Position numbers and translations under genes: made by a program. The notes under the pieces were generated by a model that made no database searches, had not been told where the DNA came from, and saw nothing but the letters and a program-made list of their open reading frames with translations. DNA of 33,706 bases from a virus. The stretch lies in the IMG/VR virus record IMGVR_UViG_3300045988_099363. The stretch is one strand, 5' to 3'. Every line of letters begins with the position of its first letter. Position 1 is the stretch's first letter. This document shows, piece after piece, positions 551-30,507 of this stretch.

Positions 551-622
551 TGAGAATTAGCTCAGTTGGTAGAGCGTCTGACTGTTAATCAGAAAGTCAC
601 AGGTTCGAGTCCTGTATTCTCA
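551..622 (+). tRNA. tRNA-Asn (anticodon GTT)
   Basis: Cloverleaf: acceptor tgagaat/attctca, D arm agctcagttggtagagc, anticodon loop ctGTTaa, T arm caggttcgagtcctg. Confidence 0.85.
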
Positions 623-823
623 GTTATTAACCTTGGTCGGATTAACGGTTAATTAAAACTGCTTACGAAAATTATCAGTTGACAAGCATGGTTGCAATAT
701 GGATTACACTTCTTGATAGCCGTTCGATTCGGAGGTTGTCAGTAGGTTAGGGAACTCTGAAGGTAACTAATCTAAAGAAAGGTAGAGATTGCCTTCGGTT
801 ATTCTCTTTTTTACGAGGTTAAA

Positions 824-1792
824 ATGAAATTATCGTTAGATGAAAAGAAAATAAGAAAAGGGAAACCAGTCGGATTGCCTTACCAAGGTAGCAAGAAAAA
901 AATTAGTAAAAAGATTGTTGAAATCATTAAGCAAAACTTTGGAACTGATAAACCGATATATGACATTTTTGGCGGTGGCGGTGCAATCACTGCCGAATGC
1001 ATTTTAAACGGCTTAGATGTCCGTTATAACGACTTGGACGAAGCTATTACTGATATGTTCCAAAAAGTTTTAAACCAAGATAGGTAATGGATTAAGACGT
1101 TAATCGTTAGTCGTGAGGAATTTTTTGAAATTAAGGCGAAGGAAAACAAGACGACCGATGACTCTTTGAAATTGCTGATTAATTCTTTTGGTAACAACAG
1201 AAAACATTATCTATATAGCACAGAATGGTCAGATATGAAGTATAACCTAGCGATTGAGGTTATTACTAAGCACGATGTGTTTAGCGGGTATAAACAAACT
1301 GAAACGTATAAAAACGCTAGACGACCATACGATAAAGGTAAACCTGAAAAAAACAATGTACTACAACAGTTACAACGGTTACAACGGTTACAACAGTTAC
1401 AACAGTTAGAACAGTTACAACAGTTAGAACGGGTAGAACGGTTAGGACGGTTTGAACAGTTAGAACGGTTAGGACGGTTTGAACAGTTAGAACGGTTAGA
1501 AGCAACAAATTTAAGTTACAATTGCTTTTCGGATGTTAAAGATAGTATTTTGTATCTTTAACATCCATATCAAGGAACACATAATTATTATAAGCTTGAA
1601 TTTGATAGCTTGAAGTTTTATGACTGGGCGTATGAAATGGCTAAAAATAATATCGTGATAATTTCGAGTTATTCAATTTCAGATGATAGATTTGAAGAAG
1701 TTTATAGCTTTGATAAAGCTAGAAGCACGCTTCAAGGTGGGATCGGAAACGGTAAATGTGAAAAATTATTTATGGTTAAGACATAATATTAG
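824..1792 (+). pseudogene. Dam-family N6-adenine DNA methyltransferase, disrupted. One reading frame carries Dam motifs (PYQGSK, FGGGGAI, LINSFGNN) but is broken by in-frame TAA stops at 1085-1087 and 1559-1561 and carries a 9-bp repeat insertion. The DPPY catalytic motif is replaced by *HPY
   Basis: Same-frame ORF pieces 824-1084, 1088-1558 and 1562-1792; motif comparison with E. coli Dam is from memory. Confidence 0.6.
1357..1500. repeat. 9-bp minisatellite, about 15-16 tandem copies (consensus ASAACRGTT), with a 27-bp higher-order duplication; encodes (QQL/ERL)n in the MTase frame
   Basis: acaacagtt acaacggtt acaacggtt ... agaacggtt aggacggtt tgaacagtt read directly. Confidence 0.9.
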
Positions 1793-1876
1793 GTATGACT
1801 TTTTATTTAAATTAAGTATTAAAAAATATCCCGATTTGACTTTTATTTTTCAAACTGATATAATCATTTTATAAAT

Positions 1877-23270: not shown

Positions 23271-23996
23271 TTAAAATTCCTCAATAATTTCTACTTTTTT
23301 AATTGGTTGCGTTGGTTGTGTTGGTTGTGTTGGTTGTGTTGGTTGTGGTGTCTGGTTAGCAGTTTCCATGAAACCTGATTCACTTTCATCATAGATACCC
23401 GAATAGACTTGCGGGAAACACTCACGGAGGGCATGAGTTAGCGCTACTTTTCTAATCATTGTAGCAGGTTTGCTATCCCAAACGTTAGTACCCATGGTTT
23501 TGCCGTCTGAACGTGTTTTCTTTTTGTCAAGACCCTTGGCATCTTTTACCTTGTCACAATTTTCGTCAAGGACATAAGCGCCATTATAATATTCGTAAAA
23601 GCTGATAGCTGTTTCATAGCCGAATCTTTCAACTTTAGCCCATGCACCGATAATTTTATCAGTTGGTAATTTTATAGAACCTTTGCGCTCTGCAATCTCT
23701 CCATCTTTAGTTAATACCACAAGACCTGTGGTTGGTGGTGCAAAATTGGGGTTGCGTGATGCTAAGATTCCCTCGCCTGATTTAGTTACCGCAAGACGTC
23801 CATCTTGGGCATAATACATCTCCCCAGTAAAAGGGTTTAGACCTCGTTGTCTTGCGATTTCTAAATCAAGCATTAGCTCTGTGTCTTTTTTGCCATCAGG
23901 AACTTTTAAAAAAGTCCGTAAGTTTGTAACTGTTGGTGCAATCGGTTGAATTTCTTGTACCGTATTGCCTTGATGTTCGATAATGTCCGTGTTCAT
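23271..23996 (-). CDS. Putative single-strand annealing recombinase (RecT/Erf/Sak-like) with a C-terminal (QPT)4 repeat
   Basis: 241 aa; position beside an SSB-like gene and a resolvase gene. The ATG at 23996 with RBS aaaggag is preferred over the upstream ATG at 24011. Confidence 0.4.
   Translation of the reverse strand: MNTDIIEHQGNTVQEIQPIAPTVTNLRTFLKVPDGKKDTELMLDLEIARQRGLNPFTGEMYYAQDGRLAVTKSGEGILASRNPNFAPPTTGLVVLTKDGEIAERKGSIKLPTDKIIGAWAKVERFGYETAISFYEYYNGAYVLDENCDKVKDAKGLDKKKTRSDGKTMGTNVWDSKPATMIRKVALTHALRECFPQVYSGIYDESESGFMETANQTPQPTQPTQPTQPTQPIKKVEIIEEF
23303..23347. repeat. 9-bp tandem repeat TTGGTTGTG x5, encoding (QPT)n on the minus strand
   Basis: Read directly. Confidence 0.9.
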
Positions 23997-24038
23997 GTTT
24001 CTCCTTTTCATTTTCCCGCCCTCCTACCTTATATACAT

Positions 24039-29919: not shown

Positions 29920-30507
29920 TTAATTAATCCAATCAATCTCAGGATTCCCTGTATAACCTTTTTCCCAAATGAACCAGGCATAACAAGCTGCACTTGATTT
30001 ATATTTTTCAAATTCGCCATTCATAGCACATATCAATCTAGAACTTGCCACATATATCTTTTTAGGCGGAAATTCATCAAAAAAGATACGTCTTGACTTG
30101 CTTTCTAAAAACTGTATTTTCAAAAACATAGCCACTTTGTTTCCGTCTGGAATTATTTCAAGCGAATGCTTAACAAAATCAAGCGCTATTTTGTATGGTG
30201 GATTAGTGATGATGTCCCCATCAAATTTTTCAACCGTAAAGAAATCCTTGACTGTTCCAAATCCACGATCGACTAGATCATGACTTTCAACTTGATATCC
30301 TTCGCCTTGTAAGGATTTAGATATATGACCCTCGCCACATGAAGGTTCTAGCACTCTACTTGAGAATTTTTCTTTTTCAAGCAATAACTCAACTGCTTTT
30401 GGGTCTGTAGCATAGTAGTCGTTAACCTCCCTTTTCAAACTGCTATGATTACTAGCTCCTAAAACAGCAAATGTGGTTGCTTTATTGCCTGTCCAATCTT
30501 TAGTCAA
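29920..30507 (-). CDS. Putative N6-adenine DNA methyltransferase (small phage-type MTase)
   Basis: SAM-binding-like LEPSCGEGHI and catalytic NPPY motifs; TTG start with strong RBS aaggag. Confidence 0.6.
   Translation of the reverse strand: MTKDWTGNKATTFAVLGASNHSSLKREVNDYYATDPKAVELLLEKEKFSSRVLEPSCGEGHISKSLQGEGYQVESHDLVDRGFGTVKDFFTVEKFDGDIITNPPYKIALDFVKHSLEIIPDGNKVAMFLKIQFLESKSRRIFFDEFPPKKIYVASSRLICAMNGEFEKYKSSAACYAWFIWEKGYTGNPEIDWIN

Follow-up and report, generated by a model that had tools for sequence, protein, structure and literature searches.

The locus and its reading frame

The window, that is, the whole stretch of 33,706 nucleotides that was analysed, comes from an uncultivated gut phage. 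Near its left end, a variable slot holds a methyltransferase cassette whose gene is a pseudogene. The features of the locus are the following:

551..623, plus strand: tRNA-Asn (GTT), by ARAGORN, Rfam (76.4 bits) and flank alignment; left landmark of the variable slot with the methyltransferase cassette
824..1786, plus strand: methyltransferase pseudogene, 320 sense-equivalent codons in one frame, natural stop TAA at 1784-1786 (translation, Pfam PF02086, full-length alignments)
878..988, plus strand: retained N-terminal motifs, PYQGSK at 878-895 and motif I DIFGGGGAI at 962-988, the AdoMet-binding region
1085..1087, plus strand: premature stop 1, TAA at codon 88, from GAA (Glu) via G->T (DNA alignment)
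1365..1501, plus strand: 9-bp (3-codon) tandem array of Leu-x-x triplets, 15.2 copies, 84% matches (TRF)
1531..1544, plus strand: left arm of an inverted repeat, GGATGTTAAAGATA, encoding a conserved DVKD; the proposed template
1553..1566, plus strand: right arm of the inverted repeat, TATCTTTAACATCC, holding stop 2 and a Pro->His change
1559..1564, plus strand: destroyed motif IV, TAA CAT versus GAC CCT (Asp-Pro of DPPY) in relatives; includes stop 2 at 1559-1561
1836..1864, plus strand: promoter-like site TTGACT-17-TATAAT with TG, by consensus match only; right landmark of the cassette
29920..30507, minus strand: second, intact small methyltransferase gene, 195 aa, with EPSCGEG and NPPY motifs (PHROG 799, E = 5.8e-64), separate from the pseudogene

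Translation confirmed what the initial annotation had read from the letters: the single frame 824-1786 is broken by exactly two internal stops, both TAA (1085-1087 and 1559-1561), and PYQGSK, DIFGGGGAI and LINSFGNN are all found in its conceptual product. The PYQGSK and DIFGGGGAI columns are invariant in a 115-sequence family alignment. A profile HMM search likewise bears out a methyltransferase, Pfam PF02086 (MethyltransfD12) matching residues 20-116 of the conceptual translation with E = 1.2e-8 and 35.5 bits, above the gathering cut-off of 22 bits. This match crosses the first stop, and PF02086 is carried by all listed homologues of the pseudogene. The uninterrupted ORF that a functional MethyltransfD12 enzyme requires is cut twice by in-frame TAA codons.

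The first base of stop 1 is G in relatives L011, L012 and L013 by DNA alignment, and codon 88 is Glu in 87 of the 97 relatives where the position was identified. Termination-reinitiation of the UAAUG type at this stop was considered and rejected, as the overlapping ATG opens only a 2-codon frame, ATG GAT TAA. Another candidate that we set aside lies 5' of the start, where about 36 nucleotides (787-822) that are extra with respect to intact relatives resemble by eye a hairpin followed by a T-run; the folding z is -0.13 and the terminator scan made no call.

What lies between the tRNA-Asn and the late promoter-like site varies among close relatives: the methyltransferase there may be intact or dead, or the slot is taken by an unrelated ORF of 26 codons. 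The deletion variant L010 lacks window positions 678-1835, with homology resuming exactly at the promoter-like site, and has an identical TerL. Besides tRNA-Asn (GTT), ARAGORN and Rfam found in the window only a tRNA-like element at 1929-2002, with loop AAUCUAG; L011 and L010 lack 4 nt of that loop. The initial annotation had also placed an intact NPPY methyltransferase gene next to the dead one on the other strand. Such a gene exists at 29920-30507, but it is not adjacent, lying about 4 kb away round the circular map; it has no Pfam match at E <= 1e-3.

Family, specificity and the Leu-x-x tract

We consider it very probable that 824-1786 is a recently dead member of the M.Phi15I / M.Phi145II family of orphan alpha-class N6-adenine methyltransferases. 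The conceptual translation aligns end to end and without frameshift with intact phage genes (67-74% identity), and 232 phage records match it with 100% query coverage and 66-71% identity. P0001 is an intact syntenic orthologue, 90% identical and set in the same tRNA-Asn / terS / terL neighbourhood. The family follows the alpha-class order, with N-terminal AdoMet motifs (X, I), a central variable region and a C-terminal DPPY (motif IV). The neighbours of the pseudogene are tRNA-Asn, the tRNA-like element and terS, and no endonuclease domain was detected among the ORFs scanned, in keeping with an orphan enzyme.

M.Phi15I, M.Phi93II and M.Phi145II are orphan methyltransferases encoded in the replication module of lactococcal 936 (Skunavirus) phages (PMC4190342; PMC4759559). 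For the Phi145.M2 primers (PMC4190342), the 3' ends match the homologous gene of phage MV16 at both termini, which ties the family to the characterised enzymes. It is also found in many streptococcal and other Firmicute prophages. SMRT data, without validation by restriction digestion, assign CC(6mA)G or CY(6mA)G to characterised members (PMC4190342; PMC4759559). The intact enzyme would be expected to methylate the phage DNA, a modification that shields the DNA of relatives from host restriction. As for the window phage itself, megablast comparison of the region and of the late genes with 50,697 phage records gave no match, that is, no sequenced cultured relative at the DNA level. Its best TerL match is Lactococcus garvieae phage PLg-TB25 (58%), and a scan of genome contigs returned only distant prophage homologues.

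The pseudogene had been assigned to the Dam family, a label that holds only in the broad sense of the D12 class and its fold. The class is right, according to the PF02086 match. Membership of Dam proper does not hold, since TIGR00571 (dam) aligns with residues 19-114 only of the intact orthologue P0001 and scores 42.9 bits against a cut-off of 114.85; the GATC specificity that the label implied is not supported either, the motif assigned to characterised relatives being CC(6mA)G or CY(6mA)G (PMC4190342; PMC4759559). GATC occurs at 3 sites in the window versus 110 expected, and the genome relies heavily on restriction-site avoidance.

The 9-bp array noted initially is real, with LQQ, LQR, LEQ, LER, LGR and FEQ as its triplets and a 27-bp higher-order unit, LGRFEQLER, occurring twice. 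It had been taken for a minisatellite that invaded the gene and replaced its target-recognition region. This view has to be abandoned: intact relatives have a Leu-x-x tract of 6-32 triplets at the same place, and the conserved region ahead of the repeat (residues ~90-175) is kept in the window copy. The array is the family's own ancestral, length-variable Leu-x-x linker and is unrelated to inactivation. Across the family, tract length correlates with protein length (r = 0.78). In DNA alignments, L005 is 27 bp shorter and L011 45 bp shorter than the window, both in frame; the L005 difference separates contigs that otherwise differ by at most a few base substitutions. All observed length changes are multiples of 9, and the array would grow and shrink by slippage in such steps.

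The intact members that were examined have the tract, and the family has nearly 5000 database matches. The structure model predicts it only as a low-confidence helix. A speculative proposal, which we regard as rather improbable, is that slippage makes it a module of tunable length, such as a helical stalk that can be longer or shorter, which adjusts oligomeric state, DNA-site spacing or specificity. If so, the tract would be the Type II counterpart of the repeat-length switch known from Type I HsdS subunits, and the dead copy in the window would be just one casualty in a family evolving fast by this route. We found no description of a family-wide variable Leu-x-x tract in the lactococcal phage papers PMC4190342 and PMC4759559 or by a literature search, and the tract may deserve biochemical study.

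The motif IV lesion and the death of the gene

In the alignment, stop 2 falls exactly on the Asp of DPPY, as the initial annotation had it, and the next codon is changed from Pro to His; the window reads LYL-stop-HPY where relatives read LYLDPPY. Wherever the motif site could be located in a family protein (116/116), it reads DPPY. Motif IV requires (D/N/S)PP(Y/F/W), whereas the window has TAA-His-Pro-Tyr and a sister allele has YPPY. This sister allele, TAC CCT, is an intermediate that co-circulates and is carried by L007. Taken together, the lesions suggest that the window copy has lost methyltransferase activity.

The destroyed motif lies in an inverted repeat whose arms (1531-1544 and 1553-1566) are 14 nt long, 100% complementary and separated by an 8-nt spacer, the longest perfect one in the gene. 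Arm complementarity rises with each of three substitutions, from 11/14 in the intact L012 to 12/14 in L007 and 14/14 in the window. Thus, an imperfect inverted repeat already existed in the ancestral state, and the clustered changes TAC CCT->TAA CAT render the two arms exactly complementary, both being marks of template switching. In parallel, the hairpin energy as single-stranded DNA goes from -2.7 (L012) to -3.8 (L007) and -11.6 kcal/mol (window, z = -7.1). A perfect repeat of at least 12 was obtained in 0/3000 simulations of 15 random substitutions placed on an ancestor reconstructed by parsimony. Only 3 mismatches in 6087 bp separate the window from L007, and two of them are the last motif IV changes. 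Other clustered branch-specific changes, at codons 255, 258 and 284, gave no templated signal, the longest matches to nearby repeats being 6-8 nt in the window and 7-9 nt in the ancestor.

Three lesions have thus accumulated in this phage lineage. The first is GAA->TAA at codon 88, and the second GAC->TAC at the catalytic Asp, turning DPPY into YPPY. We propose that the third and most recent, TAC CCT->TAA CAT, arose in one quasipalindrome template switch: the strand being synthesized in replication would copy the nearby arm GGATGTTAAAGATA, so that the imperfect repeat becomes a perfect 14-bp one and the stop codon and Pro->His change in motif IV arise as its by-product. Judging from the end states, we think that a single template switch is probably the origin of this third lesion; in principle, the same sequence could also result if the hairpin had been selected or if C->A had occurred twice independently. 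The GAC->TAC step also improves the palindrome, and this could reflect two successive events or be partly coincidence. All five disabling changes are G:C->T:A transversions, and thus a mutational bias may contribute.

It could be argued that the perfect 14-bp hairpin is instead a selected functional element (for RNA stability or processing, as a protein-binding palindrome, or as a replication or packaging signal) which evolved in an already dead gene. The hairpin is very stable for its composition, reaching -19.1 kcal/mol as RNA (z = -5.5) besides the DNA value given above; the three successive changes all go in one direction, and its allele is the commoner one, with about 14 contigs carrying stop 2 against 7 with YPPY among those read from ENA and Logan. 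However, these frequencies carry little information on selection, because the backgrounds differ by 3 mismatches in about 6.1 kb. The hairpin is missing from all intact relatives, and the relative with identical TerL has no cassette at all. An intrinsic terminator is further disfavoured, since no T-run follows the hairpin and the terminator scan made no call. We thus hold selection of the hairpin to be unlikely. Whether or not it was later selected, its origin is most simply explained by a template switch.

The loss of the gene appears to be recent. Pairwise dN/dS between the window and intact orthologues is 0.15-0.28, compared with 0.12-0.18 among intact copies. On the window branch the ratio of nonsynonymous to synonymous changes is 11:3, a figure that comes from only 14 changes, three of them motif IV lesions, while three intact lineages have 5:8, 10:10 and 23:33. 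The low pairwise dN/dS is then explained by a death recent enough to show only on the terminal branch. The 87-aa truncated product was found on 45 metagenome contigs and an identical TerL on 37. Scans of JGI metagenomes and IMG/VR with degenerate patterns for the three motif IV alleles gave no matches. Both stops occur solely in a near-clonal population, with 3 mismatches over about 6.1 kb, and none of the alleles seen there retains the catalytic Asp. One step further out, relatives with about 95% nucleotide identity have an intact gene with sense codons at the stop sites. A comparison across relatives, which had been proposed for both repeat copy number and stops, thus finds the former variable and the latter absent from intact genes, and the same stops were not met in homologous phages outside this population. 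The view of a dead methyltransferase with a lost catalytic motif is upheld, as both stops are real and the lesions recur in independently assembled metagenome contigs.

Could the remains have been kept for a new role? The 87-residue product with the AdoMet-binding motifs, or the downstream fragments, might serve for instance as an AdoMet-binding decoy or regulator. The 87-aa ORF does keep a GAGG ribosome-binding site 7 nt 5' of its ATG, it is identical on the 45 contigs, and the gene is still undeleted in the window lineage. But the identity across contigs reflects a near-clonal population and not long-term conservation, and one relative manages without the entire cassette. In the structure model, the 87 residues stop inside the Rossmann fold, past strand 2, and would be unlikely to fold alone. 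A retained function of this kind seems to us very unlikely.

A functional full-length product could also be made by programmed readthrough or suppression of both TAA codons. The frame is kept across both stops and the repeat, pairwise dN/dS is low, and the odd tRNA-like element just downstream could call a suppressor to mind. However, that element has no UUA anticodon, and neither has any other tRNA found, so a suppressor tRNA was discarded. Among the genuine stops of the window TAA is the most frequent, terminating 17/32 long ORFs, and genome-wide reassignment is therefore rejected. Motif IV would still read xHPY or YPPY in place of the DPPY of the relatives, the stops are limited to the near-clonal population with sense codons in the next relatives, and the low dN/dS is accounted for by recent death. 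Readthrough is accordingly highly improbable.

The initial annotation had offered a hypermutable on/off locus as its alternative. Phase-variable methyltransferases with repeats are known, such as Type III mod genes, and the copy number here does vary among near-identical contigs (27 bp in L005) and across the family; slippage of a 9-bp unit, with all changes multiples of 9, never alters the frame, the stops arose by base substitution and could not be undone by slippage, and the catalytic Asp is gone from every allele of the population, so that a switch is next to inconceivable here. Sequencing or assembly artefacts deserve equally little credit: the repeat region is hard to assemble and L009 has a run of N there, but both stops lie outside the repeat and occur identically in contigs of at least four samples obtained with different assemblers and k-mer sizes (ENA, Logan).

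In our reading, then, an apparently exotic locus is the ordinary recent decay of a dispensable anti-restriction gene in an uncultivated gut phage. We call the gene dispensable because L010 lacks 678-1835, only 41/90 lactococcal 936 phages carry it (PMC4759559), and 2/93 other complete family loci carry disruptions, which lie at different places. Its loss would carry no selective cost. The variable contents of the slot show that anti-restriction cargo turns over quickly in this abundant gut phage. The third lesion would provide a natural example of a quasipalindrome template switch that put a nonsense and a missense change into a catalytic motif at a single stroke, visible as a polymorphism of phage genomes with 3 mismatches in about 6.1 kb. 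Such clusters are easily mistaken for several independent hits or for directed decay.

Comparison with known systems

The window copy shares with M.Phi15I, M.Phi93II and M.Phi145II the order of motifs (X, I ... IV) and the position of the Leu-x-x tract, along an end-to-end alignment at 67-74% identity. Like the M.Phi15I and M.Phi145II genes, it is accessory and without a partner endonuclease. Unlike them, it is dead, with two stops and a destroyed motif IV. The location also differs, since the 936 genes lie in the replication module and the window copy just 5' of terS, with a tRNA gene on one side and a late promoter-like site on the other. Moreover, the window phage is uncultivated and shows no DNA-level relationship to the 936 group (no megablast match).

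With the GATC-specific, D12-class Dam enzymes of E. coli and T4, the family has in common the N-terminal PF02086 match and the fold. An AlphaFold model of the intact orthologue gave Mcbe1, EcoDam and T4Dam as best matches (TM 0.42-0.55, probability 1.0). A profile search of PDB sequences found nothing at E <= 0.01. The overall pLDDT of the model is 62.6, falling below 50 in the target-recognition domain plus repeat (residues 122-212), which is thus modelled without confidence; the solved Dam chains that it matched have 234-259 residues. In contrast to the shared fold, sequence identity is only 12-16%, TIGR00571 scores far below its cut-off, and the motif assigned to characterised relatives is CC(6mA)G or CY(6mA)G instead of GATC. 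Dam enzymes are not known to have a repeat of this sort.

An analogy for the tract may be found in Type I HsdS subunits, where EcoR124I and EcoR124II have length-variable 4-residue repeats in the central region. In both cases, short in-frame tandem repeats lie in a DNA-modification protein and differ in copy number among close relatives. The window family, however, is a Type II orphan enzyme of monomeric type, and nothing observed in it points to an effect of copy number on specificity.

Mutations associated with quasipalindromes and attributed to template switching have been described in E. coli (PMC7202029), in yeast coding genes (PMC8604942) and in RNA hairpins (PMC8794818). The window case likewise has a pre-existing imperfect inverted repeat, clustered substitutions that bring the arms to exact complementarity, and a multinucleotide change resembling several independent hits. 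It differs in that G->T, the first step, can be told apart from the two later ones, and in that the event is seen only through its end states, as a natural polymorphism in a phage population that overwrites a catalytic motif.

The gene at 824-1786 (+) is very probably a recent pseudogene from a known family of orphan methyltransferases, as judged from its sequence and that of its relatives. Two aspects are noteworthy: the putative template-switch origin of the stop in its catalytic site, and a Leu-x-x tract that varies family-wide.

A methyltransferase frame with two in-frame stops

Conceptual translation of 824-1789 gives a single frame of 320 sense-equivalent codons containing the motifs LPYQGSKKK, YDIFGGGGAITA and LLINSFGNN. 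Comparison with Pfam MethyltransfD12 placed residues 20-116 above the cut-off (E = 1.2e-8; 35.5 bits versus 22), and the match spans stop 1 without a break. The single frame, the two TAA codons, the quoted motifs and the 9-bp array described in the initial annotation were all confirmed by translation and Tandem Repeats Finder.

Features of the window (coordinates, strand, description, method)
1085-1087, +, stop 1, in-frame TAA (translation)
1365-1501, +, 9-bp tandem array, 15.2 copies, 84% matches (Tandem Repeats Finder)
1531-1544, +, left arm GGATGTTAAAGATA (inverted-repeat search)
1553-1566, +, right arm TATCTTTAACATCC (inverted-repeat search)
1559-1561, +, stop 2, in-frame TAA (translation)
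1784-1786, +, natural terminator TAA of the methyltransferase frame (translation)
1836-1864, +, promoter-like site TTGACT-17-TATAAT, strong consensus match (homology to the cassette-free relative L010 restarts here)
29920-30507, -, second small methyltransferase, intact, 195 residues (EPSCGEG and NPPY motifs; PHROG 799, E = 6e-64)

The exact 87-residue product terminating at stop 1 is recorded on 45 contigs, mostly of 33.6-33.8 kb, from at least four ENA samples and different assemblers. ERZ28569907 scaffold_1420 (33,706 bases) is identical to the window across the stretch compared, and population contigs differ from the window by a few base substitutions at most: L005 and L006 have no mismatches and one gap each, and for L007 there are 3 mismatches over 6087 bp. 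Comparison with a further population contig, L009, shows the window to be a complete genome in circular permutation. Motif IV reads TAA CAT in about 14 of the contigs read and TAC CCT in 7. The stops are real and belong to a widespread near-clonal population. A sequencing or assembly artefact is rejected, since both stops agree among independent assemblies.

Readthrough or suppression, by which a full-length product would still be made, is opposed by several observations. TAA ends 17 of the 32 long ORFs of the window, and the sole tRNAs, Asn(GTT) and a tRNA-like element, do not have a UUA anticodon. Moreover, motif IV would still be without residues present in 116 of 116 relatives examined. 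Homologues sharing the stops, which the initial annotation would have counted against decay if joined by evidence of a full-length product, were absent beyond the near-clonal population, and the next relatives, with about 95% nucleotide identity, are intact. The proposal of a dead methyltransferase is thus upheld by two real stops and by the loss of these motif IV residues.

The window also carries, at 38-90, a 14-bp tandem repeat (AGTAATTTTTTATC, 3.8 copies) at the point where this circularly permuted genome starts and ends in metagenome contigs. L010 starts (1-80) with more copies of it, and L006 is also concerned. The repeat could serve as an origin or in packaging, or just mark an assembly break point.

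Origin and timing of the lesions

Intact orthologues occur in phages of the same synteny (tRNA-Asn, methyltransferase, tRNA-like element, terS, terL), with 90% (P0001, in L011-L013) and 83% (P0002, in L106) amino-acid identity. DNA alignment gives TAA in the window versus GAA in relatives at codon 88. Motif IV is GAC CCT CCA TAT (DPPY) in relatives, whereas L007-type contigs have TAC CCT (YPPY) there and the window has TAA CAT; by parsimony, the order of changes would be GAC CCT, TAC CCT, TAA CAT.

A perfect 14-bp pair with an 8-nt spacer is the longest inverted repeat of the gene, and its right arm takes in the Pro->His change as well as stop 2. Arm complementarity is 11/14 in the intact locus L012, 12/14 in L007 and 14/14 in the window, the single-stranded DNA hairpins being of -2.7 (z = -0.4), -3.8 (z = -1.4) and -11.6 kcal/mol (z = -7.1), respectively. 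When 15 random substitutions were simulated 3000 times on the parsimony-reconstructed ancestor, a longest perfect inverted repeat of 12 was reached in no run, and the maximum of 11 only once. The two C->A changes are two of the three differences between the window and L007 over ~6.1 kb. We think that stop 2 and the His codon in motif IV probably arose in one quasipalindrome template-switch event. The earlier G->T (Asp->Tyr) likewise improves the palindrome and could represent an earlier, partial event. The remaining clustered changes on the window branch gave no comparable signal when tested for templating.

Against intact orthologues, the window has a pairwise dN/dS of 0.15-0.28, near the range among intact ones (0.12-0.18), and therefore purifying selection acted during most of the divergence (dS ~0.2). 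At sites where the intact loci L011, L106 and L107 agree, 11 non-synonymous and 3 synonymous changes are unique to the window lineage, near the ratio of such sites (~735:174); the three intact lineages give 5:8, 10:10 and 23:33. These small counts fit a recent relaxation of constraint on the window lineage.

The Leu-x-x tract and the surrounding locus

The Leu-x-x tract (LQQLERLQRLEQL...) occupies the same alignment position in the window and in intact relatives, between the conserved blocks GYKQTETYK and ATNxSYxxFSDV...LYLDPPY. The alignments thus indicate that the repeat is native to the family, contrary to the minisatellite invasion initially supposed. Nor has a target-recognition region been replaced, as residues ~90-175, N-terminal to the tract and conserved in the family, are still present in the window. 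Among 84 family proteins having both anchors, the period-3 hydrophobic run comprises 6-32 units and tends to be longer in longer proteins (r = 0.78). In the structure model the tract comes out as a single long helix (179-207, pLDDT below 50). L005 is without 27 bp, one LGRFEQLER higher-order unit, and the orthologue in L011 is 45 bp shorter here. Because all length changes seen are multiples of 9 bp, the frame cannot be toggled by slippage, and the hypermutable on/off locus offered as an alternative is discarded.

A second clean 9-bp repeat (TTGGTTGTG, 5 copies, 97% matches) lies at 23303-23347, close to the C-terminal end of a minus-strand RecT-family ORF (23271-24011).

In L010, whose TerL is identical, the whole methyltransferase cassette (window 678-1835) is absent, and ~140 nt (664-805) with a 26-codon ORF for the hydrophobic peptide MKSIIEIVFGVVMFVVGFFIGISKNE substitute for it. 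Between tRNA-Asn and the promoter-like site there seems to be a hotspot of cargo exchange. From tRNA-Asn to the start of the methyltransferase, the window is longer than intact-gene relatives (624-745 and 787-822), by ~120 nt common to the window and L010 and by an additional ~36-nt insert directly 5' of the ribosome-binding site (787-822). By eye this insert resembles a hairpin with a T-run, but its folding (z = -0.13) lends no support to a terminator. Disruption affects 2 of 93 other complete family loci, at unrelated positions. For TerL, the best match comes from a Lactococcus garvieae phage (58%), and no integrase was found among window ORFs of at least 90 residues.

Just upstream of terS, the tRNA-like element (1929-2002, +) scores 33.9 bits with Rfam tRNA (cut-off 29), while ARAGORN makes no tRNA call there. 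A T arm and a perfect acceptor stem of 7 bp are present, and the anticodon loop reads AAUCUAG in the window (A at position 33) and AAUAUAG in L106; in L011 and L010, 4 nt are missing and there is no proper loop. The element could be decaying or non-decoding.

Relation to known methyltransferases

Several sites are rare in the window: GATC (3 observed, 110 expected), GGTGA (7, 39), GAATTC (0, 11.5) and CCWGG (3, 21). CCAG (96, 121) is not avoided. These counts suggest that the phage depends on avoiding the target sites of GATC-type and other host restriction systems. The gene at 29920-30507, with no Pfam match at 1e-3, is apparently the only functional methyltransferase remaining in the genome.

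Searching 50,697 phage genomes by tblastn with the conceptual translation matched 248 records, 232 of them with at least 80% query coverage and ~66-71% identity. The majority are Lactococcus 936-group phages (Skunavirus), the others Streptococcus prophages and Leuconostoc and Weissella phages; the gene is one intact ORF of ~295-321 codons labelled 'DNA methylase' or 'site-specific DNA methylase'. In a large protein database, 4979 proteins reached E <= 1e-10 among 8000 candidates scored, and the best 120 measure 282-379 residues. One of the family, P0086, has an extra ~60-residue insertion C-terminal to DPPY, and phage 2R15S2 carries two paralogous copies 1.5 kb apart. The gene is accessory; 41 of 90 lactococcal 936 phages carry it (PMC4759559).

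Replication-module orphan methyltransferases are known from phages Phi15, Phi93 and Phi145, classed as group alpha Type II N6-adenine enzymes (Murphy et al., PMC4190342). SMRT assigned 5'-CC(6mA)G-3' to M.Phi15I and 5'-CY(6mA)G-3' to M.Phi93II and M.Phi145II (PMC4190342). In their 3' parts, the published Phi145.M2 cloning primers match the homologous gene of phage MV16 at either end, which places the window gene in this orphan family. The Dam label of the initial annotation holds in a broad sense but not for Dam proper (NCBIfam dam model, 42.9 bits versus a cut-off of 114.85). A family-profile search of PDB sequences found nothing. For the AlphaFold model of an intact orthologue (pLDDT 62.6), the best fold matches are Mcbe1, EcoDam and T4Dam, with TM of 0.42-0.55 and 12-16% identity.
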